Source of the DNA: Candidatus Poribacteria bacterium
Lineage (GTDB): Bacteria; Poribacteria; WGA-4E; WGA-3G
Length of the DNA: 64,000 nt
Assembly (NCBI GenBank): GCA_012270865.1
Contig: JAAXHL010000014.1
Location: 26,860-90,859 of the forward strand
Direction of reading: 5' to 3'
The notes under the pieces: model-generated
Seen by the model: the letters and a program-made list of their open reading frames with translations, nothing else
Told to the model about the DNA's origin: nothing
Database searches by the model: none
Shown: positions 17,033 through 45,616 of the stretch, in pieces
How positions within the stretch are numbered: the stretch's first letter is position 1
Layout: every line of letters starts with the position of its first letter
Program-made: the position numbers and the translations under genes

Positions 17033-17917
17033 TCAATTAAGTGGAATGACGACATCTCGATTACTCTGTTCTTTCAAAGCATCTAAGAGAGGTTCAACAA
17101 CCTTTTCGTCGCCGAGTACTGCCAATGTGCGGATAGCATCTACTCGGAGCGAGGACCCCTTATTTTCGACGATTTTGACTAATTCGGGTACGGCGTTGCC
17201 GCCGATTTTTCCGAGAGCCTCTACAGCGAGTTGTCGGACTTCGGGTTCTTCTCGGTCGCGTACGGACCTTGCAGCACCAGATTCGATGAGAGTTGCGAGT
17301 GCCGGAATCGCCGCTTCACTTCCCGCTTCACCGAGTGCTTTCACGGCATTCAATCGGGTCTCTGTCCGCCCATGCTCCAGAAGGTTCACCAAAATCGGTA
17401 CAATCGTGTTGGGGTCGTCCTTACCGAGGTGTCCGAGAACCCAGTGGGCATTGTGCCTATCTCGATTATCGCTCGACTTAATCGCCTTTTGAAGTTGACT
17501 CAGAAGTTGTTTTCGGTCGCCTTGGGTATAGACCCGTTTAAGTGCGTCAAGAGCTGCGTTCTGTATATCTAAGTCGTCATCGCGAAGCGTCTCAAAAACG
17601 AGTCTTTCGAGATACTTCCGTTTTTCTGCTTGATATGCGAGGAACATGTGTTTCCCGCGCTCGGTAACGGCTGCCCCCTCCCAATCCATCGTATTCGGTT
17701 CATAAAATTCTTGGGAGTCGTAAAGTCCGAGCAGATAATGTGCTTCAGCGTTATCAACCTGTTGCTGAATTGCGAGTTTAAATTCTCGGACAGCGCGTTC
17801 CTCTTTACGCCGTTTATCCGATTTGATCAATTCTTTGCCCTTAGCGAGGTTTTCATTCTGTGTGCCGCATCCAACAATAAACAGGACGAGTGTAAGGGCA
17901 ACCCAAACTTTCTTCAT
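17033..17917 (-). CDS. HEAT-repeat lipoprotein
   Basis: MKKVWVALTLVLFIVGC lipobox at ATG 17917. Repeated ...R..A..ALG..G...A.P.L... HEAT-like units. Confidence 0.6.
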   Translation of the reverse strand: MKKVWVALTLVLFIVGCGTQNENLAKGKELIKSDKRRKEERAVREFKLAIQQQVDNAEAHYLLGLYDSQEFYEPNTMDWEGAAVTERGKHMFLAYQAEKRKYLERLVFETLRDDDLDIQNAALDALKRVYTQGDRKQLLSQLQKAIKSSDNRDRHNAHWVLGHLGKDDPNTIVPILVNLLEHGRTETRLNAVKALGEAGSEAAIPALATLIESGAARSVRDREEPEVRQLAVEALGKIGGNAVPELVKIVENKGSSLRVDAIRTLAVLGDEKVVEPLLDALKEQSNRDVVIPLN

Positions 17918-18029
17918 CAAAATCTTCGGGATGGAAACCTCTTCTTTTAAGGCGAGGCGGAAATCCCGCTCCTTGTTTCTTCGCAAAATATGTCAAAAAT
18001 GTTCGTCCGCTAATAGCGGCAAGTCTCTG

Positions 18030-18572
18030 CTAATCTTCAAGAAGTGTCTGCTGTTCACTGCCGGTTTCGACAGCCTGTTCCTCCTGCGTCTCCTCCTCAG
18101 CGTCGGCTTCATCTGTTTCAGGTGCGGCTTCAAGCGTTTTCTGGAGGACAACAAGCGGCTTCTCAGAGAATCCCCAGTCCTTATATCTCTTTATGACACT
18201 CTTTTCGGATGCTGGAAGTTCGATTTCGAGTGTATTCGCACCGTCTTCTGCTGCTGTAGTCTCGGCAGCCGCCATAAGATGATCAGCGACACCTAACTGA
18301 CGGAAGGGACCGGATACAACGAGGTCGCCGACCGTTGAGATTTCAGGATCATTGGCATCTTTTTTGACGAAAATTTGTCCGATAGGGTAGCCACTGACCT
18401 CTGCGACGAGTCGGTGCGTTTGGCTTTCTTTTGCCAAATCCGCTTTTAACGCATCAGCAATCTCTTTCGGGTCTTCTTCCGGAAAACAAAATTGGTGCAA
18501 CGGTGCTGCATCTTTTTGTTGTGCTGGACGTACCTTAACGGCACCAGATAAGTTGAAATCTTGATTTGCCAT
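18030..18572 (-). CDS. GNAT N-acetyltransferase with acidic C-terminal tail
   Basis: Acetyl-CoA site-like FRQLGVADHLM. About 140-aa core plus an E/D-rich tail. Confidence 0.65.
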   Translation of the reverse strand: MANQDFNLSGAVKVRPAQQKDAAPLHQFCFPEEDPKEIADALKADLAKESQTHRLVAEVSGYPIGQIFVKKDANDPEISTVGDLVVSGPFRQLGVADHLMAAAETTAAEDGANTLEIELPASEKSVIKRYKDWGFSEKPLVVLQKTLEAAPETDEADAEEETQEEQAVETGSEQQTLLED

Positions 18573-18735
18573 GTGATTTTTTTCTCCTTTAGTTTTCTCA
18601 GGGTGCCGGTCTGTCTATAGACCGAATGCCAATTTATCTGTCCATCTGGTTCAATACCAATTTAGTGCATCATTGTAATATATATTGTTTTGCATTACAA
18701 GCATTTTTTCGGGGTGTGCTATTTGAACCGTCAAT

Positions 18736-31704: not shown

Positions 31705-31923
31705 ATGAAATTTAACGCAGTTTTCAAAAAAGTCCCAGAGGGTTATATCGGATTTGTCGAAGAATTGCCCAGCGCGAATACACAGGGTAAAACGCTTGAA
31801 GAAGCGAGGGCAAATCTCCGAGAGGCAATTGAACTGACACTTGCGGCGAATCGCGCACTTGCTGAAGAAGACATCGCTGAGTTACAGGATGTCATTCGTG
31901 AACCTATTTCCGTGCGCTTATGA
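31705..31923 (+). CDS. hicB: HicB-family antitoxin (short form), no adjacent toxin gene
   Basis: 72 aa. MKFNAVFKKVPEGYIGFVEELPSANTQGKTLEEARANLREAIEL... matches the HicB/UPF0150 N-terminal fold pattern. GGAG RBS present. Confidence 0.7.
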   Translation: MKFNAVFKKVPEGYIGFVEELPSANTQGKTLEEARANLREAIELTLAANRALAEEDIAELQDVIREPISVRL

Positions 31924-31994: not shown

Positions 31995-33011
31995 TTATCC
32001 CATCGGATGCGGTCCGTGAGTTATCACGCCTTGTCGGGCGTGTGCGTAGATTGCATCTTGAATCTCAAGAATCCGCACCGCATCAGCAACCGTCGGCTCA
32101 AAGGTACTGCCATCACGGATTGCGTCAAATGCCCTACCCATTATCCCCTGTATCCGCGCACCGTGAGAGATGTCCTCGCTAAACTGCACACCCTCCGTTG
32201 TATGGACTTCAATCAACGGTTCACCGTTGCGACCATATTGTTCAAACACGGAAGCCTTCGTTCCAACGAACCGAAAGAAATGATCGCCACCGCGTGTGCC
32301 AGATGGATAGTTATAACCAGATTCAATGACACCGGTGATCCCGCTTTCCGTTCTTAACACACCGATACCGCTATCCTCTACACCACGACTATGCATGGCG
32401 TTGGACATAACCGCGCCGACGACCGTGATTTGTTCATCACCAACGAATTGAAGGAATGTATCAATACCGTGTGCTGCTTCAACCGCCCAGCATCCGCCAC
32501 CAGAGATACTCGGATCGCTGTGCCAGTAAGACGGAGTCGGATCATAACGGGATGGAGGACCGTTGTTAAGTCTGCTATTGTATAACGTCAGTTCTCCTAA
32601 ACTGCCATCAGCGACCATCCCTTTAACAACACTCACGATTCGGCTTGCGCGGTTCGGTAGCACAAGCGCGCTGAAGACTCCATGCTTTTCGGATGCCTCA
32701 GCAGCGGGACGGAGCCTATCTGCACAATCCGCGAACGGTTTGTCTAAAAGGTAAGGGATACGCCGATCTACACATGCTTGGACGTGATCTCCCATTTCAA
32801 TATGTTTGCCAGCGACAAGCACAGCGTCAGGTTTGCTGGTGTCAAGGCATTCCGCTGCAGTCTCGAATCCAGGACATTGAAAATCGTCCATCAACTGTTG
32901 TCGGGGAGCAGGTTCACCGTCCATAACTCCGACAATCTCGTGTCCAAGTCCGTGCGCCGTGCGCGCCATACTCCGTCCGTGATGACTATAGGAAAGCACT
33001 GCTAATTTCAT
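31995..33011 (-). CDS. Gfo/Idh/MocA family oxidoreductase
   Basis: 338 aa with an N-terminal Rossmann-like segment and the family-typical ...EKPF... equivalent (LLDKPFA). Confidence 0.75.
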   Translation of the reverse strand: MKLAVLSYSHHGRSMARTAHGLGHEIVGVMDGEPAPRQQLMDDFQCPGFETAAECLDTSKPDAVLVAGKHIEMGDHVQACVDRRIPYLLDKPFADCADRLRPAAEASEKHGVFSALVLPNRASRIVSVVKGMVADGSLGELTLYNSRLNNGPPSRYDPTPSYWHSDPSISGGGCWAVEAAHGIDTFLQFVGDEQITVVGAVMSNAMHSRGVEDSGIGVLRTESGITGVIESGYNYPSGTRGGDHFFRFVGTKASVFEQYGRNGEPLIEVHTTEGVQFSEDISHGARIQGIMGRAFDAIRDGSTFEPTVADAVRILEIQDAIYAHARQGVITHGPHPMG

Positions 33012-33330: not shown

Positions 33331-33654
33331 CTAAACCGTGATAACCCGCTGTTGCCCCTCTCTGTATCCTGAGGGCGTAATGCGAATCTCAATATCGCGG
33401 TTGAGTCGATTCAGAAACGTCAACAGCCGTTCGACGCTATAATGATTAAACTTTCCTTTTTTGAGTCGTGAGATTTCAGGCTGCTTCACGCCGAGAATCT
33501 TCGCGGCTTCCGCTTGGGTGAGCTGACGATCTTCTATAATCCGAAACACTTCAAACCCAAGTTTCGCTTTGAGAAACAGTTCGTCGGCATCTGGCAAGTC
33601 TAAATCCTTAAACACATTGCCTGAACTCTTTTCAAATTCAATCTTCTTGCTCAT
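33331..33654 (-). CDS. XRE-family HTH antitoxin (HigA-like)
   Basis: 107 aa. HTH segment LTQAEAAKILGVKQPEISRLKKGK. Overlaps the upstream toxin gene by 17 nt. Confidence 0.8.
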   Translation of the reverse strand: MSKKIEFEKSSGNVFKDLDLPDADELFLKAKLGFEVFRIIEDRQLTQAEAAKILGVKQPEISRLKKGKFNHYSVERLLTFLNRLNRDIEIRITPSGYREGQQRVITV

Positions 33655-34012
33655 AATTCTTCTCCAGTTCCTGCGCCATTCTGAGGCGTTTGTTGATAAG
33701 GTCTACCTCTTTCTTGGGGGTCTGAATGCCGCGCCTTGATTTTTTCTGAAAACAATGCAGCACATAAACCCTCTCTCCGATTTTCACGGCATACACGGCA
33801 CGATACGTGTCCGTCCTATAATCCGCTCGGATCTCAAAAACCCCTGAGCCAACGCCCTTGAAGGGTTTTGCTGCAGGAGACATGCTTCCCGCCTGTGCAA
33901 TAAACAAAGCGTCCCCTATATCCTTTTGAACGGACTGCGGAAATTCCTTCAGCTTTGCCTTAGAATCCCCGACCCATATAGCCTCTCTTAAGTTCAGTCT
34001 TTCGTGATCCAT
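33638..34012 (-). CDS. RelE/ParE-superfamily toxin of the Gp49/HigB type
   Basis: 124 aa. ...KPFKGVGSGVFEIRADYRTDTYRAVYAVKIGERVYVLHCFQKKS... The toxin-first order is typical of higBA. Confidence 0.75.
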   Translation of the reverse strand: MDHERLNLREAIWVGDSKAKLKEFPQSVQKDIGDALFIAQAGSMSPAAKPFKGVGSGVFEIRADYRTDTYRAVYAVKIGERVYVLHCFQKKSRRGIQTPKKEVDLINKRLRMAQELEKNYEQED

Positions 34013-34124
34013 AATGTATTATAACCAAATGGATATAATATGTCAAGCTGATATTTCTCAAAAGTTATTGTAAATCAGTGATTATCAAGGTTCTTTGGGT
34101 GCTATTGTATGAATCTGCGCATTT

Positions 34125-34196
34125 ATGAAAAGATGCGAGTTCATTCGCCATCTTGAAAAGAATGGTTGCAAAAAGAAAGCGTTGATAAATCACAAC
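34125..34196 (+). pseudogene. hicA-like toxin gene remnant (N-terminal ~24 codons)
   Basis: MKRCEFIRHLEKNGCKKKALINHN resembles the HicA N-terminus (MKRxEFxRHLExHGC...). It lacks the following REGGxH catalytic segment. The reading frame then runs antisense into the 3' end of CDS 34212-36137. Confidence 0.4.
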
Positions 34197-34211
34197 CCAG
34201 ACTTATCACTA

Positions 34212-36137
34212 TTATCTATAAAACGAATACATCTGCAAGCCTGTGAAGAGTCGAATGAGTACCCAAATCCCACCGATCATGAATTCACCGAGAATCAGTC
34301 CGAGAAAAAGCGGATACGCTTTGCGGTACAGACGAATCCCACCGACTTTCAGCAGTATCGTTTTGATGCCCCAACTCAGAAATATCGAGAACCAGAGCCT
34401 ACCGATCGTCGATCTCTCGCCAGCGACGAGATAACCAGCCGGGTGGAAGGGCCAGAACGGAAAGACGGTTCGGAGCCACCAGAGAAAACCCGTGAAAAAC
34501 GCTCCGACACCGATAAACGTCACTGCAACAACGTCGGTTTCAGTCGGATGCGAAATCCAATTTTGCAGGAGATTGTAGCCTCCCGTACCCAAGTCGCTGA
34601 CGACACCAATATTGTATCCGACAAGTAGATACGCCCAAAACGAAGCGAGAATTCCGACCACCGCCGCGAACATCATCGCTATAATCAGTCTGCCGGAACG
34701 CATGCCTGATTCTTCCGCAAGTTTGAACCCTTCGAGGGTATGCGGCATCGGGTTTGCACGAGAACCACGATTGAAGGTGAGATAGAGACGCATCATCGTC
34801 AGGCTCCCGTGCGAAAGGATTCGCGTGCCGAAGATGTCTGTCAGGATGCCGTGCGGTGTTGCATAGGTACGGATCGTTGGTGGACCGACTTCAGCACGGA
34901 TACGCGTGAGACTCATAGATAACAGATAGTAGATGAGGAAGTAGAGACCGATCGTCCAAATTGCCATTCCGCCTCTATGTGAAAAGATGAACAGAAACGC
35001 TAAACCGCCGACCAATCCCAGTGCAGCCCATCGGTAACGCATCGGCTCCCCACTGTCGTCGATTTCACCCGGTGAATGGTATCCTCGGAAAATGTGCTTC
35101 GCAACACGGAAAAAGAAGCGGCGTCCACCCCAAAGTGCGAAGCAGGAGAGGACGAGGTAACCACCCATTATCTGCTGCCAGTCGTAAGGGAACCCCGGCA
35201 GAATATCGAGTCCGAGTGCGCTGCCCAATATCCGTTCCGCTTTCCAGAACCAGTAGAAAAACCAGACGGAGAACGACATCTCTAACGGCATAAGGTACGC
35301 GAGTCCGACAGCGAATGAGCGGATATAGATAGGTGTCCAACCGATAGAATTCCACGGTTTTTGCGTGAAGTATTGACCGATTTCGGCGTGCCGTACTGGA
35401 ACTTCGGGAATCTCAGGAAAGAGAACATGAAAACCGTTGATGAGATTGATACCGCCAGCGATAGCGAATCCGAGCCACATCATCTTCGACTTAAAGAGTC
35501 GTCCGTCAAGTCTTGTCATCTCCAATGGCAGTTGTACAATCGGATAGGATAACCGTTCATGTTCGATCCATTGTCTTCGGATGAAAACATCGAGGCAAAT
35601 CATCACCCAGATAAGGACAGTGAGAAACACTGTCCACCAGAGGATAGGACGGAGCCATCCGAGCAGATGTGCTTTTGTATAGAGTGTACTTTCGCCATCG
35701 TAAAACAGTTTCAGGCTTGCTTCGTCGTTAGAGGTAAGCCACGGTGGAAGGTATCGCCAGAAGAGTTGTTTCCACTCATTTTCGGGAGTTGCGAACCAGT
35801 ATCCATCGGAGATCGTCGGGATAACCGTTTGCATCATATCGTGCCCTGCAATCGCTGATGAGAGCGAGAGCATCGCGAAGACTGTCAGGAGTTCACCCTG
35901 TCTGAAAGCGAACTTTGGCAGAAACCGTTTTAGCAGTAGATTGAACGGGACAAGCACCATTAACGTGATAATCACGTTATAGATGAGCGACATCGTCGTC
36001 GGGAGGGTACTCCAAAATTTGAGGTGGTTTGCCATGATGAAGTAGGTATTCACCGGAATCAGTAGCAAACCGAGCGCAATGGCACGAAAGGTTACACCGG
36101 GATGATGGGTTTTGTTTTTCAAGGTCGCTTTTGGCAT
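34212..36137 (-). CDS. 641-aa polytopic membrane protein of unknown function
   Basis: At least 14 hydrophobic segments and no motif I can name. Starts 49 nt downstream of helicase-nuclease B on the same strand. G+C resembles the surrounding genome. Confidence 0.6.
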   Translation of the reverse strand: MPKATLKNKTHHPGVTFRAIALGLLLIPVNTYFIMANHLKFWSTLPTTMSLIYNVIITLMVLVPFNLLLKRFLPKFAFRQGELLTVFAMLSLSSAIAGHDMMQTVIPTISDGYWFATPENEWKQLFWRYLPPWLTSNDEASLKLFYDGESTLYTKAHLLGWLRPILWWTVFLTVLIWVMICLDVFIRRQWIEHERLSYPIVQLPLEMTRLDGRLFKSKMMWLGFAIAGGINLINGFHVLFPEIPEVPVRHAEIGQYFTQKPWNSIGWTPIYIRSFAVGLAYLMPLEMSFSVWFFYWFWKAERILGSALGLDILPGFPYDWQQIMGGYLVLSCFALWGGRRFFFRVAKHIFRGYHSPGEIDDSGEPMRYRWAALGLVGGLAFLFIFSHRGGMAIWTIGLYFLIYYLLSMSLTRIRAEVGPPTIRTYATPHGILTDIFGTRILSHGSLTMMRLYLTFNRGSRANPMPHTLEGFKLAEESGMRSGRLIIAMMFAAVVGILASFWAYLLVGYNIGVVSDLGTGGYNLLQNWISHPTETDVVAVTFIGVGAFFTGFLWWLRTVFPFWPFHPAGYLVAGERSTIGRLWFSIFLSWGIKTILLKVGGIRLYRKAYPLFLGLILGEFMIGGIWVLIRLFTGLQMYSFYR

Positions 36138-36186
36138 AAAGGGATTGGTACTTAGAGTTCATGGTTTGTTAGGTGTTAGTGGGATA

Positions 36187-38766
36187 TTAGTTGGAGTTTG
36201 GTGTCATTCTTGATTGTTCCACAACCTTCCACATATAATTCCAAAAGTCGCGGAATACATTCGTACACAAATGTGTTTTCTCTGGACCGATACAATAATC
36301 TGCCAAGCGACTATTATCTATAGTTTCTACGCTTTTAGCAGAAAATGAAACTATTTCCTTGGCCGATTTTATGTCTAAACCTGACAAATACTGTATCATT
36401 TTTCGTTTGATAAAGGGCTTATCTATATTTCCCAAGTTAAGCCTATTTCCACACCTGAATATAATACGATCTAAATAGATTGTAACCACCTTATCTAGAT
36501 GATCAAGGGGCCAGATATTTTTCTTTTTAGGGACCGTCCCATGTATGTTTATTAACTGTTTGGGAAGACTGATTTGCGGCGGCGGCGTTGCTGTGTTTTT
36601 AACCGTGCTATCAGTTTCCAATGCATCGCGCCGTAAAGGAGGGGGTTTACGTTTATGTTGTTTATATGGGGGTTTGGTTGAAACTTCTATCTGTTTGGGA
36701 GACTCAGATGTTCCCCTTGTTTGTTCTGCTTTCCCAAGTTCTATAGGAGGTACGTTTCGAAATTCTGAAATGAATTGACAATTCCCACCATCAAAAACGA
36801 CCAACTCCTGCTCTGCACGAGTCACGGCAACATAGAAAAGTCGTCGTTCTTCTGCCAAATCATTTCTGTCATCGGGCAGGTTATCATACACAGTGTTTAC
36901 AAGAAGAATAACCTTTTCCCACTCTCGCCCTTTCGCAGTGTAAATGTTGAGGATCTCAATCTCTTTTTCACCTCGCCGCAAGATTATTTTTCTTCTATTT
37001 TTTTCACTCGGATCACCTAAATCCTTCCAGTCAATTTCAAACCCTTGGATCTGAAGTTCTGAAAAATCGAGAATATCCTGAATGTCATTGATCTCGCCCT
37101 TCCAGTTGCGAGCCAAAATTCCTACTTTTTTGAGATCAGCCGTTAATAAGTTTGATAGTTCCCTTAACAAAACCTCTTTTACTGTCCCTGTTTTCTGTGG
37201 AGTTTCAAAAATCTTTACTTGATTTTGGGCAGAATTTTTAGCGCAGAGATCTTTGGGAATCCGATCCCGCTTTGGATTGTGTTCAATCAAAGCCTTCGCA
37301 TGCCTAACAATTGTTGAAGTGGAACGGTAATTGCGCGTAATTTTATAATGTGTTACATTTCTCCGTTTTCCAAACTTCTCTCGCATAATTGAAGAATCAC
37401 CACCCCGGAATCCGTAAATTGCCTGATCATCATCGCCAACAGCAAAGAGATTTTCTGAAAAAAGGTCTATCAAGCGAAAATCAATAGGTGATATATCCTG
37501 AAATTCATCAACAAAAACATAACGATGTTTGTCGCGATAGTCTTGGTAAAGATCAGGATGGGTTTCAAGTAGGTGTGCCGAGTAGATAAGCATATCAAGA
37601 AAATCAATAGCATCAGCTGCCTTTCTTCTTTCTTCATACCTTTCAGCAAATGCGCGGAGGACAGGATCCAAGATTTTATCAGGATTGAACAAACCTGTGT
37701 TAACCTGCCGTTTTGCTTTTTCGACATCCTCTCTCAGATCGTCAAATCTTTTCATTAGATTTTCAAACTTTTCGGGATGCGCTAAGACTTGGTTGTAGGA
37801 AATATCGAAATACTGGCAGAATACCTCAATAAGAAGTTGATTACTATATCTTGCTTTTTCTGGATCTTCTCGGTTAAACACCGCCCAGTTTTTGTGATCT
37901 TTAATCTCATTTGCGATATGAGTAGAAGCCTCTGTCCAAGGCACTTCTGTACAAATAACCTCAAATTTAAATCGTTTATTTCCTTCATTTTCGATTATTT
38001 TACGGATACTTTCTGAATCTGTTGTATACCCGATGTAAGCAGTAACATCTGTCAGTGATTTGATTTTATAGATAGTTACAAGAACGTTGCTGCTTTGACT
38101 TACGACTTGTTCCATTCCGTGAACGAGGTTAAACACAGATCGATTTCTATAGTAATTAATCCAATATTTCTCTCGAGGATAAGCTATCGCACCTTTCACC
38201 CACTCAATTACATCAAAGTCAAAATGCTCTTCGCCTTTCTGGATTGCATTACGTAGTCCTCGGTTTGATGAATCAGTGCGGTGTTGATGCTCTCGAAATC
38301 CTGGATCCATAGTTTGTCCAATATAACACCGACCTGTGGTTGCCCCTTCAAGTTTATAAATAGCAACATCTGCAGTTCGAGTTTCTCGGTCTAATAATCT
38401 CTTTTCCTCATTAATGACTCGTCCAATTTCCTTTTCGTTCCATGTATCAGGTTCCTTACTAAATCCTAACAACTCATAACGATTCGTAATAAGGTCTTTT
38501 CCAAATGTATGAAGGGTACAGATTTTATGTTTCCCTTGCCTCAAAAGTAGTTCATTTGAAAGCCTCTCTGTCATTTCGTCAGCAGCGGCGTTAGTGAAAG
38601 CAATCGCAAGGATATGCTCCGGATCCACGTTGTGTTCACGGATTAGATGTAAAATTCGTTCTTTGATAACTGTGGTTTTTCCGCTGCCAGGACCTGCCAC
38701 AACGAGGGCAGGTCCCTGAAAATGTTCCACGGCTTTTTGCTGGTTTTCGTCTAATTTCAGTGTCAT
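36187..38766 (-). CDS. UvrD-like SF1 helicase with inserted GIY-YIG nuclease module(s) and novel C-terminal extension (helicase-nuclease B)
   Basis: SF1 motifs: AGPGSGKT; ILAIAFTNAAADEM (Ia); FVDEFQD (II); VGDDDQAIYGFRGG (III); TRNYRST (IV); YTAKGREWE (V); YVAVTRA (VI). GIY-YIG core at aa 133-212 (AIYKL...GRCYIGQT...REHQH...SSN...REKYWINYY). Degenerate second copy at aa 228-300. aa 671-859 are unassigned. Confidence 0.85.
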   Translation of the reverse strand: MTLKLDENQQKAVEHFQGPALVVAGPGSGKTTVIKERILHLIREHNVDPEHILAIAFTNAAADEMTERLSNELLLRQGKHKICTLHTFGKDLITNRYELLGFSKEPDTWNEKEIGRVINEEKRLLDRETRTADVAIYKLEGATTGRCYIGQTMDPGFREHQHRTDSSNRGLRNAIQKGEEHFDFDVIEWVKGAIAYPREKYWINYYRNRSVFNLVHGMEQVVSQSSNVLVTIYKIKSLTDVTAYIGYTTDSESIRKIIENEGNKRFKFEVICTEVPWTEASTHIANEIKDHKNWAVFNREDPEKARYSNQLLIEVFCQYFDISYNQVLAHPEKFENLMKRFDDLREDVEKAKRQVNTGLFNPDKILDPVLRAFAERYEERRKAADAIDFLDMLIYSAHLLETHPDLYQDYRDKHRYVFVDEFQDISPIDFRLIDLFSENLFAVGDDDQAIYGFRGGDSSIMREKFGKRRNVTHYKITRNYRSTSTIVRHAKALIEHNPKRDRIPKDLCAKNSAQNQVKIFETPQKTGTVKEVLLRELSNLLTADLKKVGILARNWKGEINDIQDILDFSELQIQGFEIDWKDLGDPSEKNRRKIILRRGEKEIEILNIYTAKGREWEKVILLVNTVYDNLPDDRNDLAEERRLFYVAVTRAEQELVVFDGGNCQFISEFRNVPPIELGKAEQTRGTSESPKQIEVSTKPPYKQHKRKPPPLRRDALETDSTVKNTATPPPQISLPKQLINIHGTVPKKKNIWPLDHLDKVVTIYLDRIIFRCGNRLNLGNIDKPFIKRKMIQYLSGLDIKSAKEIVSFSAKSVETIDNSRLADYCIGPEKTHLCTNVFRDFWNYMWKVVEQSRMTPNSN

Positions 38767-38800
38767 AAAGGCAATCTTGCTTAGATCTCCAAATAGGTCG

Positions 38801-38847
38801 GAACTTTAATGTTATGAACTTTAATGTTATGAACTTTAATGTTATGA
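38801..38847. repeat. perfect tandem repeat, 15 bp x3 (+2 nt): gaactttaatgttat
   Basis: Units at 38801-38815, 38816-38830 and 38831-38845. Located between the extended -10 box and the start codon of helicase-nuclease B. Confidence 0.95.
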
Positions 38848-38855
38848 TTATACCA
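38847..38855 (-). promoter_or_regulatory. extended -10 promoter element
   Basis: The minus strand reads TGGTATAAT (TGnTATAAT), 81 nt upstream of ATG 38766. No good -35 box, as is usual for extended -10 promoters. Confidence 0.5.
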
Positions 38856-38915
38856 AATCTGAAAAATGAACTTGCCTTTAGGTGGTTTGGAAACTTTATG
38901 AAACCTAATATACAA

Positions 38916-38969
38916 GTGGCGCAATAACGCACTTCGCATTTGGGTGAGTACACCGCAGAATTGCGCCAC
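38916..38969 (-). terminator. 10-bp perfect inverted repeat, possible terminator/insulator after the 82-aa gene
   Basis: GTGGCGCAAT (38916-38925) pairs with ATTGCGCCAC (38960-38969), with a 34-nt loop. On the minus strand it is followed by TTGTATATT. Weak as a classical intrinsic terminator. Confidence 0.35.
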
Positions 38970-39017
38970 TACGAACCAGATTTCTGTTCACGAGAAACGG
39001 TTATTCAGAAATAGTGT

Positions 39018-39266
39018 TTATTTGAAAATAGCGACGATAATCGAAATGATAATAGCACCAACGGCACACGCGGTCGTTATCCAGTTTCGCATCCCCGCAA
39101 TCGCGCTTTGTTTACCTTTGAGTTCCGATATACCGTTCTCAACAGTGCGTAGCCGGGCATCCATTCCATCTAAACGCTGATTAACTTCTGCGAAATTTGT
39201 TCTAACTTCTTCTCTGATTTGATCAAAACCGTCTTTCATCAATTGGTAGAGTTCTTCATTTGTCAT
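39018..39266 (-). CDS. 82-aa coiled-coil, C-terminally membrane-anchored protein (XhlA-like architecture)
   Basis: N-terminal heptad-like helix (FAEVNQRLDGMDARLRTVENGISELKG), then a single C-terminal TM segment (ITTACAVGAIIISIIVAIF). Starts 47 nt downstream of helicase-nuclease A. Confidence 0.6.
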   Translation of the reverse strand: MTNEELYQLMKDGFDQIREEVRTNFAEVNQRLDGMDARLRTVENGISELKGKQSAIAGMRNWITTACAVGAIIISIIVAIFK

Positions 39267-39313
39267 TTCTTCTGTTCTCCTTTCGCTTTTTGATAAAAAT
39301 TATACCACATTTT

Positions 39314-41041
39314 CTATTTTGCATCACCTTCTTTTTTAAATTGCCTTCTCGCACGCCAATAAGCGAACTGCCGGAGATAGTAACCGATATTTTTTTCGAT
39401 TTTCTCGAACTCTGGCACGAATGGACACCTCCCACCGAGGACGACGAGTTCTGTCTTCGCACGCGTCATTGCGACATAGAAGACACGACGCTCCTCTGTC
39501 AGTTCACTATCACGACGCGGAAAGCGACGTTCCAACGTGTTATGGATGAGGATGACCTTCTCCCACTCCCTACCTTTCGCTTTGTGGATTGTTGTTATTT
39601 CAGGTGCTGCCGGATGGTTGCCAAGCATCTCTTGAATCTGATCGGTTTCGTAGTTGGTGCGCGCTAAAACAGCAGTATCTTCGGACGATTCCAACTCGCG
39701 TGATAACGTGGCTGCAACGGTTTCAGGGGTCGTCTCTACGGTTTTTATGCGTTGTTGGGTCGGGTTGTAGGCGCGGAGGTCTTTACGGATACGGGGTGTG
39801 TTGCGCTCAATCAACGCTCTGGCATGCTCAACGATTGTCGATGTGGAACGGTAATTGCGTGTGATCTCATATTTTGTTACGTTCTTCCTATCCGTGAATG
39901 CAAGCATAATCTCGGAGTTACCACCACGGAATCCATAGATCGCCTGATCGTCGTCGCCGACAGCGAAGAGGTTTTCGGATAAGAGCTCAATCAGTCGGAA
40001 ATCGGCGGGTGCGATGTCTTGGAACTCGTCAACGAGGACGTACGGGTACTTTTCAGAATAGGTTTGACAGAGATCAGGGTTCGTCTCAAGTAGATTTGCG
40101 GCGTGGATAATCATGTCCTCGAAATCGACAGCATTCGCTTCGGTTTTGAGGATTTCGTATTTTATAGCAAATGCGCGCGCCACTGGGTCGTCAAGTGTCT
40201 TCGGGTCGAACAATCCTGTCGTGACCTGTCGTTTCGCGCGCATGACCGTCTCCTTTATCCCGTCGAAACGATCGCGGAGGTTCTCGAAATCTGGGTGTGT
40301 GTCGAAATTTTCTTCATAAGGGATACCGAAATGCTGACAGAACATCTCAAGGACCAGTTGGTTGCTGTAGTGCCTACGGAGTGGGTCGGCACGGTTAAAC
40401 ACACTTGTCCGTTCTCTGTAGTATGCGATCCAGTGTGCTTCTCGACGATTTGCCTCTCGTCCTGGCATATACTCAATTACTTTAAAACTGAATTGTGTCT
40501 CTCCTTCGGATCGGATCGCCTGTCGGAGTCTGTCGTTTGATGAGTGCGTGAAATGTTCTTTTTTCCGCCGTTCAGGGTTTGTGGTTTGCCCGATGTAGCA
40601 CTTACCGGTCTTTGTGTTCTCAATTTTATAGATGGCGACCTCAATTGTTGCGGCTTCCCGCTCAATCTGTCTCCGTTCTTCAGCGATGATTTTGTCAATC
40701 TGTCCCGACCAAATTTCAGGGATATGGCTAAAGCCTGCGCGTTCATAGTTTTCGGTGATAATGTCTTTGCCGAAGGCGTGGAGTGTACGGATGACAGGTG
40801 TGCTGGATGTAGCGTGGTCTGATGCTGCGAGTGTGCGTCCGACACGGGTTTCCATCTCTTCAACGGCTTTTCTGTTAAAGGCGATGGCAAGGATATGTGA
40901 TGGTGGGATATTGTGTGTCTGGATGAGATTTAGAATCCGTGCCGTAACGACTGTGGTTTTACCGCTGCCGGGGCCTGCAATGACGATTGCCGGTCCTGTG
41001 AAGTGGTTGACGGCTCTTTCTTGGTTTCTGTCGAGATTCAT
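39314..41041 (-). CDS. minimal UvrD-like SF1 helicase with inserted GIY-YIG nuclease module (helicase-nuclease A)
   Basis: SF1 motifs: AGPGSGKT; ILAIAFNRKAVEEM; LVDEFQD; VGDDDQAIYGFRGG; TRNYRST; IHKAKGREWE; YVAMTRA. GIY-YIG core at aa 133-216 (AIYKIENTKTGKCYIGQT...RRKKEH...HSSN...REAHWIAYY). Alignable along its whole length with 36187-38766. Confidence 0.88.
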   Translation of the reverse strand: MNLDRNQERAVNHFTGPAIVIAGPGSGKTTVVTARILNLIQTHNIPPSHILAIAFNRKAVEEMETRVGRTLAASDHATSSTPVIRTLHAFGKDIITENYERAGFSHIPEIWSGQIDKIIAEERRQIEREAATIEVAIYKIENTKTGKCYIGQTTNPERRKKEHFTHSSNDRLRQAIRSEGETQFSFKVIEYMPGREANRREAHWIAYYRERTSVFNRADPLRRHYSNQLVLEMFCQHFGIPYEENFDTHPDFENLRDRFDGIKETVMRAKRQVTTGLFDPKTLDDPVARAFAIKYEILKTEANAVDFEDMIIHAANLLETNPDLCQTYSEKYPYVLVDEFQDIAPADFRLIELLSENLFAVGDDDQAIYGFRGGNSEIMLAFTDRKNVTKYEITRNYRSTSTIVEHARALIERNTPRIRKDLRAYNPTQQRIKTVETTPETVAATLSRELESSEDTAVLARTNYETDQIQEMLGNHPAAPEITTIHKAKGREWEKVILIHNTLERRFPRRDSELTEERRVFYVAMTRAKTELVVLGGRCPFVPEFEKIEKNIGYYLRQFAYWRARRQFKKEGDAK

Positions 41042-41071
41042 GTTCTTCAGGATGTGACATCTGTTTTATCG

Positions 41072-41425
41072 CTACAATATTTGTAAAAGCACTCCGATTT
41101 TATCTAAAATTTCATGTACGGTATAATGAGGCAGGGAACACCAAAACTCCACATTTCTCTCCTGCCAATCAAGACTCTTGACCTGATCTGCAAGAACGAC
41201 ATCCTTTACATCTAACCCTTCTGGAATAACGACCTCAAAAGAGTTGTTTCCGCCCCTCGTAGTAATTGGACAGAAGATCGCCAAATTCCGAGAACTTATA
41301 TTATATTCCCATGGACTAAGGACAACGGCAGGGCGACGACCCGCCTGTTCATGACCGGTTTGGGGATCGAAATTAATCCAAACGACATCGCCGGGGACCG
41401 GAACGTACTGTGTTAAATCTACCAT
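41072..41425 (-). CDS. mazF: MazF/PemK-family endoribonuclease toxin
   Basis: Motifs GDVVWINFDPQTGHEQAGRRPAVVLSP, ...CPITT... and LADQVKSLDW, typical of MazF/ChpB. Its ATG overlaps the upstream stop codon (ATGGTAG). Confidence 0.88.
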   Translation of the reverse strand: MVDLTQYVPVPGDVVWINFDPQTGHEQAGRRPAVVLSPWEYNISSRNLAIFCPITTRGGNNSFEVVIPEGLDVKDVVLADQVKSLDWQERNVEFWCSLPHYTVHEILDKIGVLLQIL

Positions 41426-41835
41426 ACTTCATTGCCCACTGATGGTCCCGTGTCTACCTCACCTTGCCCACCATCTTCTGGCATTTGGGCTAAAAGTTCT
41501 TCAAGCGTAAATTTGGGTTTCCCGCGGCGTGGCGGTGGTGGCGTGCGGTGCGGCTTGAGCTTTCCAGATTTGACAGCTTCACAGAACAAATCATAATCCG
41601 GCATTTGGGCTAAAAGTTCCTCAAGCGTAAATTTCGGTTTCCGGCGGCGTGGAGAGGGTGGCGTGCGATGCGGCTTAATAGTTACATCTGTAGCATCGGA
41701 TGGAACGCCTGAAGTGGCTACTTGCTCATCTTCTGCGCTGTGTGGCACGCTTGAAGTCCTGATGTATTTGACATACGCTATAAAAATTAAGCATTCTTTA
41801 TAGGACATAATTGCCTCCTTGTATAAGGATACCAC
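41419..41835 (-). CDS. MazE-like antitoxin with duplicated toxin-binding segment and no recognisable AbrB/SpoVT domain
   Basis: The C-terminus KFTLEELLAQMPEDGGQGEVDTGPSVGNEVW parallels E. coli MazE ...[30 protein letters not shown]. The N-terminal 60 aa are unlike an AbrB swapped hairpin. The start codon is uncertain. Confidence 0.55.
   Translation of the reverse strand: MVSLYKEAIMSYKECLIFIAYVKYIRTSSVPHSAEDEQVATSGVPSDATDVTIKPHRTPPSPRRRKPKFTLEELLAQMPDYDLFCEAVKSGKLKPHRTPPPPRRGKPKFTLEELLAQMPEDGGQGEVDTGPSVGNEVW
41480..41676. repeat. in-frame direct duplication, two 77-bp copies 120 bp apart
   Basis: 41480-41556 and 41600-41676 differ at 7 of 77 positions by hand count. Each copy encodes KPHRTPPxPRRxKPKFTLEELLAQMP. 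Confidence 0.85.
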
Positions 41836-41867
41836 AATTTGATTAACGCGTCAAATTTTAATTTAAC

Positions 41868-42302
41868 TCACTTCGGGATACGGCGGACCCATAGCATGAG
41901 TGCGACATTCATCGCGCCGATAAAACCGAAAACGTAAGATTGGATGCCTACCAATGTATCGAGCGACCGGAGGAGCATCGCACAGAAAACTGGTAAACTG
42001 AGTGCCACGCAGGTGTAGAGCATAAGGAGTTTTGAGCCTTTTGCTTCCCAAAAGGTTATCTCCCGTTTTAAAACCTTTAGATACGACTGCTGCCACAACC
42101 GAGATGTCCACTTCCCCTGCATAAACCCTAAACCGATCCCCAAACCGAAACCGAAACTTGACCAACGCAAGTCAATACGCACATTGTAGGACAGTGCCAC
42201 AACCCACAGGAGTTGTCCGAGCACCGAAAGCACTATAAATGCCCAAAAAACAGGCATCTTCATATAAAATGGAAGTAGGCGACGTGTTAACTTATCCTGC
42301 AT
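41868..42302 (-). CDS. small 4-TM membrane protein, unknown function
   Basis: 144 aa with four hydrophobic segments and no recognised motif. Confidence 0.45.
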   Translation of the reverse strand: MQDKLTRRLLPFYMKMPVFWAFIVLSVLGQLLWVVALSYNVRIDLRWSSFGFGLGIGLGFMQGKWTSRLWQQSYLKVLKREITFWEAKGSKLLMLYTCVALSLPVFCAMLLRSLDTLVGIQSYVFGFIGAMNVALMLWVRRIPK

Positions 42303-42354: not shown

Positions 42355-43155
42355 CTAAAGATTCGCTTTGATGTAATTAACAGCGTTTTTGAAGATCGCG
42401 AGTCCGTCACCTTCTTCAGTCGTCGTGTCTTGCGTTTGTGCAAACCGAGTCCAGCGGGGGTGATTCCATTTCGTTAGGAACCGTTCCGGGTGTGGCATCA
42501 AGCCGAAGATCCTACCCGTCGTGTCACAGATACCAGCGATCTCAGCATCCGAACCGTTCGGATTCTTCGGATATTCACTCTCAGTATATCGAAACACGAC
42601 TTGATTCTTCGCTTCTAATTCAGCCAACACATCTGCGGGTGCAGTGAACCGTCCCTCAGCGTGTGCGACGGGGAGATAGATACTCGGTTTGATGCCTTTC
42701 GTAAAGACACACGGACTCTCTTGTGTCTCTAAATCTACCCATCGACACTCAAACTTTGCGGAGGTGTTCATGGCGAGCGTCGCGCGCTGCGTCATCTCTG
42801 AAGCACCGTTGTTAGATGTAGACACGCCGGGTAACAAACCCGTACGGACAAGCACTTGGAAGCCGTTGCATATACCGATAACCAGTTTACCGTCCGCAAC
42901 GAATTGGTTCAGCGCATCTGTTAGTTTGTGTTTCATCTCAACGGCTAACAGGATACCGGCGGAGATGTCGTCGCCGTAGGAGAAACCACCCGGAATCGCG
43001 AGGATCTGATAGTCGGATAGGTTAACTTTACCGGAGATGAGGTTTTGGATATGGACTAACGCGGTCTTCGCACCAGCGAACTGGAACGCGGTCTCCGTTT
43101 CTGCGTCGCAGTTAGTCCCTGCAGTTCGTAAGATGAGTACTTTAGGTTGCGTCAT
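42355..43155 (-). CDS. purQ: phosphoribosylformylglycinamidine synthase, glutaminase subunit
   Basis: Motifs GGFSYGD, GICNGFQ (catalytic Cys) and MPHPER. Confidence 0.92.
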   Translation of the reverse strand: MTQPKVLILRTAGTNCDAETETAFQFAGAKTALVHIQNLISGKVNLSDYQILAIPGGFSYGDDISAGILLAVEMKHKLTDALNQFVADGKLVIGICNGFQVLVRTGLLPGVSTSNNGASEMTQRATLAMNTSAKFECRWVDLETQESPCVFTKGIKPSIYLPVAHAEGRFTAPADVLAELEAKNQVVFRYTESEYPKNPNGSDAEIAGICDTTGRIFGLMPHPERFLTKWNHPRWTRFAQTQDTTTEEGDGLAIFKNAVNYIKANL

Positions 43156-43195
43156 TTTTATCCTCTATAAATATAACACACGTCTTGCTAAAAAG

Positions 43196-45616
43196 TTACG
43201 AATGCAACGGCGTTTGCCATGCGGATTTAAGGACATCAATTGAGGTCTCGACGATCCGATGCCCCGCTTTTCCTGTGATGACGAATTCAGGTGTCTCTGT
43301 GACAGTTCCGAGGTAGCCTGTTGGTACGCCTGCTATGTGATTTTCGTAAGCCTTTCGGTGTTGCGGTTCAACCTCTACAATAAAACGGCTGTTCGATTCC
43401 GAAAACAGGAGATAGTCGTCAGCATCGGTCTCATCGCCAGTGGGAACGTTGTCCAAATTCAACTTCATTCCGTAGCCACCTGCAAACGCCATCTCCGCCG
43501 CTGCCACACCGATACCGCCTTCGGAACAGTCGTGACAAGAACGCACCAACCCACTGTTAATAGCACTGCTGAGTCGTTCCATTGTCCGTTTTCCTTCAGC
43601 CGGACAGACGACGGGTGCGCTGTTTCCGATAAATCCGTGGATACCGAAGTAGTGCGATCCGCCTAATTCAGCGTAAGTGTTGCCGACGACATAGATGAGA
43701 TTGCCGGGTGCTTTTACATCCATTGTAACGGCGGTACGGATGTCTGGGATGACACAAATCGCGGAGATAAGGAGTGTTGACGGAATGGCACGTTGTTCGC
43801 CAGTTGTTGTATCCCGATATTCGTTATAGAGGCTATCCTTACCGGAGATGTAAGGCGTGCCGTAGGCGGTTGCGATGTCATAACACGCTTTCGCCGCTCG
43901 GACTAACTCACCGAGCCGATCAGGTTTGTCCGGGTTCCCCCAACAGAAGTTGTCTAACAGTGCCGTCTTTTCGACGGTTCCGCCGACAGCGACGATGTTG
44001 CGCAACGCCTCGTCAATCGCTGATGCCGCGCTGAGATACGGGTCTACGTCGCTGTATTTTGGGTTGATACCGTTGGCGATAATAACGCCTTTCCGACTCC
44101 CTAAGACCGGCGTGATAACGCACGCATCACTGGGTCCGTCGTTTGCCACACCGACGAGCGGATTGATAACCACACCACCTTGTACAGCGTGGTCGTATTG
44201 GCGAATGACGGATTCTTTACTGGCGATGTTCGGACTTGCGAGCAGTCGCTTAAGATCGTCCGTGTAAGAGGGGTTTTCAACCCCGATTCCTCTCTCTCGG
44301 GACGGCATATCTGGGTGGTTCGGTGGCTGCCAAACCGCCGCTTTCACAGGTTTCGGGAGTCCGTTATGCAGGAATTCCATCTCTAAATCAGCGACAATCG
44401 CGCCTTCATAGAAGACCTGTAACCGATGTGTATCCGTGAAAGTTCCGAGGACAGTGGCTTCAACGAATTCCGCCTCACAAATAGCCACCAATTCCGATAG
44501 GTTTTCGGGTGGCACGGCGATAACCATCCGTTCCTGTGCTTCGGAGAGCCAGATTTCCCACGGCTCCAGCCCCTCATATTTTAAAGAGACGCGTTCGAGG
44601 TGTACCTCTGCGCCTATAGCTTCACCCATCTCACCGACGGCGGACGAGAACCCGCCTGCACCACAATCGGTAATTGAGCGATAGAGGTTGCGGTCGCGCG
44701 CCTGTAGCAACGCATCAACGATCTTTTTCTCCATAATCGGGTTGCCGATCTGTACGACGCTGCCGAGGTTTTCGGAGGTATCGTCGAGTTCAGCGGAGGA
44801 GAACGTCGCGCCGTGAATGCCGTCGCGTCCGGTTTGTCCGCCGATAGCGACTACCAGATCGCCGGGTTCAACGGACTTTTCACATCTGTTTCTCGGTATG
44901 AGACCGACGTTTCCACAGAAGACGAGCGGGTTTGCTGTATAACGACTATCGAAAAGGATCGCACCGTTAGCAGTCGGGATCCCCATCCTGTTGCCGTAGT
45001 CTCGGACACCGGCGACAACGCCTTTAAAGACGCGTTTCGGATGAAGCGTGCCTTTCGGTAACTCCGTGTATGACATGTCCGGCATTCCAAAACAGAAGAT
45101 GTCCGTATTCAGAATCGGTTTTGCGCCGAGTCCGGTGCCGAGGGAGTCGCGAATCACGCCGCCGATGCCTGTCCCCGCACCGCCATAAGGTTCAATCGCT
45201 GATGGGTGGTTGTGTGTCTCGACTTTGAAGACGAGGTTAAATGTCTCGTCAAACTCAATGATACCAGCGTTGTCCGAAAAGACAGAGACGCACCACGGTT
45301 TGGCGATGTCCTCGGTTGCGCGTTGGATGTAGGTTGGGAACAATCCATCAATTTGTTCGGGTTCTTTTCCGTCTTCGGAATAGCGGATGATACTCTTGAA
45401 CGTTTTATGAACACAATGCTCCGACCATGTTTGTGCGATGGTCTCTATCTCTACATCTGTCGGATTGCGTCCTAAGGTGCCGAAATGCGTCTGGATCGCC
45501 TTCATCTCGTTGAGGTTCAGCGACAATGTTCCCTCTCGGCTGATACGCATCAGTTCAGCATCGTCCGCATTTAGAATCTCTATTTCTTTAACCATATTGG
45601 ACATTAATTTCTCCAC
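43196..45616 (-). CDS. purL: phosphoribosylformylglycinamidine synthase subunit PurL
   Basis: 806 aa. Motifs ...EIETIAQTWSEHCVHKTF..., ETHNHPSAIEPYGGAGTG, and duplicated AIR-synthase-like domains. Confidence 0.92.
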   Translation of the reverse strand: MEKLMSNMVKEIEILNADDAELMRISREGTLSLNLNEMKAIQTHFGTLGRNPTDVEIETIAQTWSEHCVHKTFKSIIRYSEDGKEPEQIDGLFPTYIQRATEDIAKPWCVSVFSDNAGIIEFDETFNLVFKVETHNHPSAIEPYGGAGTGIGGVIRDSLGTGLGAKPILNTDIFCFGMPDMSYTELPKGTLHPKRVFKGVVAGVRDYGNRMGIPTANGAILFDSRYTANPLVFCGNVGLIPRNRCEKSVEPGDLVVAIGGQTGRDGIHGATFSSAELDDTSENLGSVVQIGNPIMEKKIVDALLQARDRNLYRSITDCGAGGFSSAVGEMGEAIGAEVHLERVSLKYEGLEPWEIWLSEAQERMVIAVPPENLSELVAICEAEFVEATVLGTFTDTHRLQVFYEGAIVADLEMEFLHNGLPKPVKAAVWQPPNHPDMPSRERGIGVENPSYTDDLKRLLASPNIASKESVIRQYDHAVQGGVVINPLVGVANDGPSDACVITPVLGSRKGVIIANGINPKYSDVDPYLSAASAIDEALRNIVAVGGTVEKTALLDNFCWGNPDKPDRLGELVRAAKACYDIATAYGTPYISGKDSLYNEYRDTTTGEQRAIPSTLLISAICVIPDIRTAVTMDVKAPGNLIYVVGNTYAELGGSHYFGIHGFIGNSAPVVCPAEGKRTMERLSSAINSGLVRSCHDCSEGGIGVAAAEMAFAGGYGMKLNLDNVPTGDETDADDYLLFSESNSRFIVEVEPQHRKAYENHIAGVPTGYLGTVTETPEFVITGKAGHRIVETSIDVLKSAWQTPLHS

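Follow-up and report, generated by a model that had tools for sequence, protein, structure and literature searches.

A GIY-YIG nuclease domain within a UvrD-like core helicase at a conserved, cassette-collecting locus of Candidatus Poribacteria

The DNA analyzed here, referred to as the window, is a 64,000-nt stretch from a Candidatus Poribacteria bacterium (GCA_012270865.1, contig JAAXHL010000014.1, positions 26,860-90,859). We investigated a set of nine minus-strand open reading frames (ORFs) within it, two of which, HelA and HelB, are large proteins that combine a UvrD-family helicase with a GIY-YIG nuclease domain. An earlier note, made from the sequence alone, had described the nine as one accessory island flanked by toxin-antitoxin (TA) modules and as a candidate anti-phage system. 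Its coordinates and strand held for all nine ORFs, as did the flanks it gave, purL-purQ on one side and a Gfo/Idh/MocA oxidoreductase on the other. We found, however, that purL-purQ-TM4-HelA-DUF6785-Gfo is a vertically inherited Poribacteria backbone (its DUF6785-Gfo part in the window's clade), that the remaining genes were inserted independently of one another at three hot spots between its genes, and that HelA is a core, phylum-restricted, vertically inherited UvrD-family helicase of superfamily 1A (SF1A). The backbone genes and the two helicases are as follows (window coordinates; aa, amino acids):

43196-45616, minus strand: purL, housekeeping gene, upstream end of the backbone
42355-43155, minus strand: purQ, housekeeping gene, upstream end of the backbone, spanning 42355-45616 together with purL (Pfam AIRS and GATase_5 on the orthologues of the two genes)
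41868-42302, minus strand: TM4, core backbone gene, four hydrophobic segments
39314-41041, minus strand: HelA, 575 aa, UvrD-family SF1A helicase with a GIY-YIG domain in domain 1B
40388-40645, minus strand: GIY-YIG insert of HelA, aa ~133-218, I-TevI-like
36187-38766, minus strand: HelB, 859 aa, accessory AT-rich paralogue of HelA
38119-38370, minus strand: GIY-YIG copy 1 of HelB, aa ~133-216, intact
37852-38082, minus strand: GIY-YIG copy 2 of HelB, aa ~229-305, degenerate
36202-36504, minus strand: all-alpha C-terminal domain of HelB, aa ~755-855
34212-36137, minus strand: DUF6785/DUF6784 polytopic membrane protein, 641 aa (PF20581 6e-166, PF20580 1e-30)
31995-33011, minus strand: Gfo/Idh/MocA oxidoreductase, downstream end of the backbone

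A genome scan restricted to one genome per species returned 72 loci at 62-89% identity, 70 of them titled Poribacteria; HelA loci of species-representative Poribacteria genomes numbered 71. Named HelA homologues belong to Candidatus Poribacteria without exception, and HelA forms more than 120 distinct 90%-identity clusters (79-95% identity). The proteins of the window were placed on the HelA loci by tblastn, with the loci having enough flank as denominators. Upstream of HelA, purQ was present in 55 of 60 loci and TM4, which has no match in Pfam, NCBIfam or PADLOC, in 54 of 60 (63-92% identity among its orthologues). Downstream, DUF6785 was found in 35 of 63 loci; these copies, 84-95% identical, cover the window's clade, in which Gfo, an SMP30-like gene and an amidase follow on as they do in the window. 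DUF6785 is not downstream of HelA in deeper clades. In many genomes TM4 and HelA are separated by only 0-14 bp and HelA and DUF6785 by 66-72 bp, which are the ancestral gaps. The identity of HelA to the window's copy correlates with that of purL (r = 0.86), purQ (0.86) and TM4 (0.84), the GC content of HelA and its GC content at third codon positions (GC3) match those of core genes, and HelA is kept even where its context is altered (L047; L068, with TnpB-like and insertion sequence (IS)-like ORFs at the junction). The synteny, the short gaps, the identity correlations and this persistence show that HelA is core and vertically inherited rather than part of an accessory island. Accessory status, which the earlier note had extended to the whole group, is appropriate for the TA modules and HelB; HelA, TM4 and DUF6785, by contrast, belong to the core and keep their synteny with purL-purQ across Poribacteria. 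That note had also observed that no integrase or transposase is visible and had left the arrival of the island unexplained. Indeed, integrase, transposase and tRNA genes are all absent from the 64-kb window, but a missing integrase is no puzzle here, since the backbone has always been in place and only small cassettes were inserted at its three junctions.

Both helicases match Pfam UvrD-helicase, AAA_19 and UvrD_C, and in both PF01541 (GIY-YIG) is embedded at aa ~136-210, inside the N-terminal helicase domain, scoring above the cut-off in each (38.6 bits, 1.3e-9, for HelA; 25.6 bits for HelB). The motifs GPGSGKT, DEFQD, GDDDQAIYGFRGG, NYRST and VA(M/V)TRA are present in both, in agreement with the intact SF1 motifs reported before, and HelA has the full set of SF1A motifs (Q, I, Ia, II, III, IV, V and VI) that marks UvrD-like helicases. 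Among 67 full-length HelA orthologues, ranging down to 62% identity, the GIY-YIG residues Y138, Y149, R159, H163, E201 and N216 are 100% conserved; Walker A, DEFQD and the motif VI core are likewise invariant, with motif III variable at one position. Judging from this conservation, nuclease and helicase motifs alike appear to be under purifying selection.

HelA aligned with Deinococcus UvrD (DrUvrD) in three blocks (HelA 3-94 to 13-107, 285-473 to 175-374, and 471-535 to 556-625), indicating that the insert lies inside domain 1B and that domain 2B is missing. The remaining helical, C-terminal part of 1B is kept, whereas the ~180 residues of 2B (DrUvrD ~375-555) have no counterpart in HelA; the whole of 2B is also absent from HelB. 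An AlphaFold2 model of HelA had a mean predicted local distance difference test (pLDDT) score of 74.6, reaching ~90 in the GIY-YIG region, and a predicted template modelling score of 0.62. Its nearest Foldseek neighbors in the PDB were UvrD, PcrA and Rep; AdnB, AddA and RecB came next.

The distribution of this architecture is narrow. When 1.84 billion proteins clustered at 50% were searched, ~27 representatives covered the insert, all with at least 46% identity, while below 46% the matches reached the helicase core alone, in UvrD-like proteins of ~610 aa and a few giants of 2,000-6,500 aa. The insert-less giants P0150, P0154, P0158 and P0175, among the closest insert-less relatives of the HelA core, measure 2,600-6,500 aa and are 40-44% identical over this core. 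Pfam recognizes only UvrD domains in P0150 (residues ~1570-1990), so that these large relatives are for the most part unannotated. A neighbor-joining tree built on the helicase core showed the proteins with the insert to be monophyletic with respect to insert-less outgroups, and the HelA orthologues formed one clade. Two loci carry a longer helicase (659-673 aa) at the HelA position (L060:10001-11980 and L066:9971-11992; P0328 and P0329). These proteins fall in the HelA clade with an N-terminal part that looks HelB-like, and may be HelA/HelB recombinants or intermediates that gained a second GIY-YIG-like segment.

The note had not recognized this architecture as a named system, and we agree: GIY-YIG inside UvrD is not catalogued in PADLOC, and literature searches on GIY-YIG/UvrD fusions, Poribacteria UvrD and DUF6785 returned no description of it. 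Searches of phage and viral contigs found no relative of this architecture, only separate helicases or free-standing GIY-YIG genes. One IMG/VR contig (L088:861-3511) was considered as a fused helicase-nuclease and rejected, the ORFs being adjacent: a free-standing GIY-YIG gene of 313 aa has as its neighbors there another ORF that is endonuclease-like and a UvrD-like helicase of minimal size (345 aa). Such an arrangement is a plausible start for an in-frame nuclease-helicase fusion.

One may ask whether the insert has any host function at all, or is a selfish homing-endonuclease domain that invaded the helicase gene in frame. Its nearest relatives are group I intron and homing endonucleases (TIGR01453, 1.9e-13, 50.9 bits vs. 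a cut-off of 56), and a PADLOC homing-endonuclease model matches it at 9e-11. Furthermore, a recent GIY-YIG insertion is documented in HsdR (PMC1564403), free-standing GIY-YIG genes adjoin a UvrD-like helicase gene on the viral contig described above, and the insert is tandemly duplicated in HelB. We nevertheless consider this very improbable for HelA. The six catalytic residues are invariant across the 67 orthologues, we found no HelA orthologue without the insert (the closest proteins that lack it match the helicase core only), and the insert lacks an I-TevI-type DNA-binding module. A fixed endonuclease without empty target sites would moreover be expected to decay, as copy 2 of HelB did.

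The remaining genes of the group occupy the three intergenic hot spots which, in backbone order, are filled in the window by MazEF, by p82 and HelB, and by HigBA. With the smaller elements of the region, they are:

41419-41835, minus strand: MazE-like ORF, cassette 1, at the TM4/HelA junction
41072-41425, minus strand: MazF, cassette 1 (PemK_toxin 1e-23; NCBIfam MazF 107.5 bits)
39018-39266, minus strand: p82, 82-aa coiled-coil tail-anchored protein, accessory, at the HelA/DUF6785 junction
38801-38847, strand not applicable: perfect tandem repeat, 15-nt unit, 3.1 copies, in the spacer between p82 and HelB
34018-34046, minus strand: sigma-70 promoter of higB, 12/12 consensus positions matched
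33638-34012, minus strand: HigB, cassette 3, at the DUF6785/Gfo junction (Gp49, PF05973, 2.4e-23)
33331-33654, minus strand: HigA, cassette 3 (HTH_37, PF13744, 6.5e-26)
31705-31923, plus strand: HicB/UPF0150-like ORF, 72 aa

MazEF, p82, HelB and HigBA are independent insertions, as seen from the contents of the same junctions in other genomes. At the TM4/HelA junction, MazE was present in 9 of 60 loci and MazF in 5 of 60. Elsewhere this junction holds a 172-aa ribbon-helix-helix (RHH)-like protein with a 135-aa HNH endonuclease in ~16-24 loci (L075:3759-4698; also L002, L005, L006, L009, L010, L013, L016, L021 and others), a Dam-like methyltransferase with tetratricopeptide repeat (TPR) proteins (L065), or, in L022, unrelated genes over several kb. 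At the HelA/DUF6785 junction, p82 (GC 0.42) occurred in 28 of 63 loci, whether or not a second helicase was present, and other occupants were an N6_N4 methyltransferase (L075), a WD40 protein (L015) and, in L058, a methyltransferase accompanied by a DDE transposase and a Mrr-like gene. At the DUF6785/Gfo junction, HigBA was found only in the window and in L004, at 97-98% identity. Sponge symbionts including Poribacteria have been reported to be rich in TA and restriction-modification (RM) genes (PMC5649159, PMC5099237), and junctions that collect such cassettes fit that report.

The HNH cassette, which recurs upstream of these helicase genes, was considered as a system partner of the helicase and rejected, since its partner protein differs between loci and most loci lack the cassette. 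At an unrelated locus (L077:7593-8475), an HNH gene 52% identical to that of the cassette, accompanied by an unrelated 155-aa partner, immediately precedes a HelB-type gene.

Both TA modules have the expected organization. HigBA consists of a Gp49 toxin followed by a helix-turn-helix antitoxin in overlapping genes downstream of a consensus promoter, as its earlier identification implied. In MazEF, a PemK-family toxin is preceded by an ORF overlapping it by 7 bp (41419-41425), whose identity as antitoxin is deduced. The MazF half of the original MazE-like/MazF assignment is therefore secure, but the MazE-like ORF has no family match in Pfam or NCBIfam and no recognizable N-terminal DNA-binding domain, and its label is based on position and on a C-terminal tail (…VDTGPSVGNEVW) resembling the toxin-binding tail of E. 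coli MazE. This ORF also contains an internally duplicated motif of ~26 aa, KPHRTPPxPRRxKPKFTLEELLAQMP. For p82 we found no significant family, the DUF2951 match in Pfam being weak (0.005). The repeat unit between p82 and HelB is GAACTTTAATGTTAT (x 3.1). In a promoter and terminator scan of the window, the counts were not above those of shuffled sequence, and the higB promoter alone was noteworthy. A hicA remnant proposed for this region was not confirmed by Pfam, nor was an intact HicA partner of the HicB/UPF0150-like ORF seen within the window. That ORF, conserved with Gfo in many related loci, is 94-99% identical over many Poribacteria loci, exceeding the conservation of its housekeeping neighbors. 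Among further variable elements at the edges of the backbone (L106:1-1542, 17039-18632; L104:355-2007), a type IIG (MmeI/Eco57I-like) RM gene or an N6_N4 methyltransferase lies directly upstream of purL, and an IS605 TnpA/TnpB pair downstream of Gfo.

These distributions bear on the proposal that HelA, p82, HelB and DUF6785 form one horizontally acquired anti-phage system flanked by TA modules, a reading that we consider most improbable. It draws on the fact that a helicase combined with a nuclease is common defense logic, on the confinement of TA modules to 31.7-41.8 kb of the window, which bears out the TA-rich neighborhood that had been described, on the RM and HNH genes that relatives carry at the same junctions, and on GajB profiles that match both helicases (1e-60 to 1e-65). 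Yet the backbone genes are core, and HelA lies in housekeeping synteny, the very finding that the earlier note had set against its own defense reading. That note had also suggested looking for co-occurrence of the 82-aa and 641-aa proteins; just 3 of 57 loci combine HelA, p82, a second helicase and DUF6785, p82 and HelB can each be present in the absence of the other, and the deeper clades do without DUF6785 at this position. HelA has a native composition, the GajB matches are no better than those of PcrA and come without a GajA- or OLD-type partner, and the other genes have no PADLOC match.

HelB is a flexible-genome paralogue of HelA, 47-52% identical to it by BLAST. A BLAST alignment and an alignment to I-TevI, for which we used what we take to be the I-TevI sequence, revealed two tandem GIY-YIG copies. 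Copy 1 keeps the Tyr, Tyr, Arg, His, Glu, Asn set, whereas copy 2 lacks both the Arg/His segment and the Glu and does not qualify as catalytic by these residues. The intact GIY-YIG core previously attributed to both large proteins is thus found in HelA and in copy 1 of HelB, but HelB has a degenerate second copy in addition. The nearest relatives of HelB (74-83% identity, 860-865 aa) occupy the same slot, and a second helicase was present at ~9 of 71 HelA loci. The second copies in this slot fall into three or more lineages of paralogues, 55-63% identical to one another.

Most members of the HelB family are considerably longer (1,300-1,490 aa), with a full-length GrpE domain (PF01025, 1e-21), a C-terminal alpha domain and one to four S1 domains in addition to UvrD and GIY-YIG; examples are found among P0276-P0345 (e.g., P0281 and P0279) and at L008:12948-16799 and L029:7785-11486. 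A few HelB-type proteins also have TPR repeats and some an FGE-sulfatase domain, and NCBI labels some of the long ones 'nucleotide exchange factor GrpE'. We found no precedent for a UvrD, GIY-YIG, GrpE and S1 fusion. The HelB of the window is a short form that lacks GrpE and S1 and shares the C-terminal alpha-helical domain with the long forms; this domain was modeled as all-alpha with a pLDDT >90 and had no significant fold match in the PDB (best E = 3.6). Helicase motifs are kept throughout the family, while the GIY-YIG signature is undetectable in about one third of its members.

The composition of HelB also sets it apart. Its GC is 0.395 and its GC3 0.337, compared with a GC3 of 0.54 for HelA in the window, and HelB-type genes were ~10 GC points below HelA and core genes in all nine other genomes (GC3 of 0.25-0.43 for HelB-type genes vs. 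0.32-0.57 for HelA within the same genome). Among the eight loci fetched by HelB-type queries, six had the HelB-type gene directly downstream of HelA, and two had it away from HelA (L077 and L107). At L107:9001-14610, a DDE transposase (IS) splits the gene into a 990-aa helicase-GrpE part and a 487-aa S1-repeat part. HelA, HelB and a major facilitator superfamily gene (MFS) are syntenic across three genomes of one clade.

Three options may be considered for the role of HelB, a decaying duplicate being one of them. A second is that the HelB type by itself, or perhaps together with p82, represents accessory genes of conflict or defense beside a core paralogue, with the GrpE and S1 parts of the long forms serving as sensors or baits and the helicase-nuclease as effector. 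We regard this as possible, though doubtful. Consistent with it are the patchy presence of at least three paralogue lineages in one slot, the GC deficit relative to host genes, the neighboring N6_N4 methyltransferase, Uma2, HNH and RM genes (the last with a transposase), the odd fusions of UvrD, GIY-YIG, GrpE and one to four S1 domains, and the tolerance of IS disruption. On the other hand, no PADLOC family matches the insert or C-terminal regions, the architecture was not found on phage or viral contigs, the HelA-HelB-MFS synteny looks stable rather than mobile, the nuclease signature is missing from about a third of the family, and the window's copy is entirely without the GrpE and S1 modules.

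The third option is that HelA and HelB, where both occur, form a two-motor heterodimer for double-strand-break end resection, similar to AdnAB or AddAB. The same-strand HelB-type gene right after HelA in six of eight fetched loci would fit such a pair, as would paralogous UvrD-like subunits that each have a nuclease, one nuclease copy being degenerate (compare the degenerate motor of AddB), and the presence of AdnB, AddA and RecB among the structural neighbors. However, ~60 of 71 genomes have HelA without an adjacent HelB, so that HelA must be able to function by itself; some HelB-type genes lie at a distance from HelA, the mismatch in composition is unusual for subunits of a housekeeping enzyme, and GrpE and S1 fusions have no place in end resection. 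We therefore find the heterodimer unlikely.

Taken together, our analysis favors, with a probability of roughly 0.6, a backbone with three hot spots in which HelA would be a core helicase-nuclease of repair or recombination rather than a dedicated anti-phage system. As HelA is a core gene and co-linear with purL-purQ, it most likely has a housekeeping role, to which we give somewhat better than an even chance; DNA repair, which the earlier note had named as its main alternative, is the better reading for this protein. HelA would bind a 3' single-stranded tail and translocate 3'->5' with ATP, as UvrD, PcrA and Rep do. Since 2B, the autoinhibitory domain, is missing, HelA is probably active constitutively and would need no partner. 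The GIY-YIG domain in 1B is predicted to sit beside the exit of the tracked strand from the motor, and in this position it would nick or cut DNA as it is unwound, functionally like RecB, AddA and AdnB. As a secondary effect, a RecBCD-like degradation of foreign linear DNA is possible.

Several points weigh against this interpretation. The junctions on either side of HelA gather TA, RM and HNH genes and can be read as a defense-island association, the local density of TA modules is real within the window, and an immune gene fixed in a lineage would look 'core' too. In addition, the HelA model is only of moderate quality, and where the nuclease would lie with respect to the path of the DNA is deduced from UvrD-family structures. 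GrpE, a DnaK cofactor, and ribosomal protein S1 are host factors that phages commonly hijack. Alternatively, the insert-bearing helicases might be a Poribacteria-specific immune family, in which the long HelB-type proteins would be new anti-phage effectors, their GrpE and S1 mimics acting as baits for a helicase-driven nuclease, and the core protein HelA would represent an ancestor of theirs that was domesticated, or else a first line of defense that is constitutive and RecBCD-like; we think this improbable.

A helicase-nuclease found amid TA genes is not enough to call a defense island; here, comparative synteny revealed the 'island' to be a core locus that has three hot spots for insertion. 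The build of HelA, with a homing-type GIY-YIG domain within 1B of a UvrD-like motor lacking 2B, appears not to have been described before for a helicase-nuclease, and it is fixed across a candidate phylum whose members are sponge symbionts. Should HelA be this lineage's main helicase for repair, it would clearly exemplify how a selfish nuclease domain can be domesticated for core DNA metabolism. At 575 aa it is compact and should be suitable for biochemistry although the organisms are uncultivated, and the paralogues of HelB type fused to GrpE and S1 merit a separate look.

Among known systems, UvrD, PcrA and Rep are the closest, sharing all SF1A motifs with HelA and providing its best matches to solved structures (UvrD E = 8e-42, PcrA 4e-39). 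They are, however, ~720 aa long and have a 2B domain, whereas the smaller HelA lacks 2B and carries GIY-YIG in 1B. HelA is not an equivalog of any of the three, as it scored 173-220 bits against NCBIfam cut-offs of 911-1168 (219 vs. 911 for PcrA). RecB, AddA and AdnB resemble HelA in having a UvrD-like SF1A motor covalently joined to a nuclease, and the HelA-HelB pair recalls the tandem paralogues adnA-adnB and addA-addB. Their nuclease is nonetheless a C-terminal PD-(D/E)XK domain and not an inserted GIY-YIG; we did not detect a PD-(D/E)XK domain in our proteins, the NCBIfam recB and addA scores were far below the cut-offs, and no partner subunit of RecC, RecD or AddB type accompanies HelA or HelB.

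With respect to defense systems, GajB of Gabija is a UvrD-family helicase, and the likeness to Gabija suggested by the note can be attributed to generic UvrD similarity. GajB scored 217 bits and PcrA 219 bits, Rep profiles scored alike, and among solved structures UvrD is much closer to HelA than GajB (8e-42 vs. 7e-14). GajB also has no nuclease insert, and the ORFs neighboring the helicases gave no match to GajA, OLD or TOPRIM families in Pfam or PADLOC. When the nine proteins and isolated segments were searched with PADLOC, we obtained generic UvrD/GajB, homing-endonuclease and weak UzuA matches and no match to a system. The UzuA match was partial and confined to the HelA insert (2.9e-5, 21.7 bits), HelB giving none, and there was no full-length profile match to Uzume, PD-T4-3 or PD-lambda-1. 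Nhi is an Upf1/Dna2-like SF1B helicase with an N-terminal nuclease; it was not among the 25 best of the 56-65 PADLOC families matching each helicase, and AAA_11/AAA_12 matches were weak.

The nuclease itself is most similar to the GIY-YIG domain of I-TevI type, with the same catalytic residues if our I-TevI sequence is taken as correct. I-TevI has a linker and a zinc-finger/helix-turn-helix DNA-binding module that the HelA insert lacks, and the insert is part of a helicase and has become fixed throughout a phylum, being neither intron-borne nor free-standing. Precedents exist both for the fusion, in Tetrahymena Tlr8p, which joins an SF1 helicase to a GIY-YIG domain like that of I-TevI, and for internal insertion, in the HsdR subunit mentioned above (PMC1564403). 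Tlr8p, however, is encoded by a eukaryotic mobile element and has its nuclease at the C-terminus, and in HsdR a Slx1-like domain was inserted recently, in a single instance, into an SF2 enzyme. Unlike either of these, HelA is a conserved bacterial core gene.

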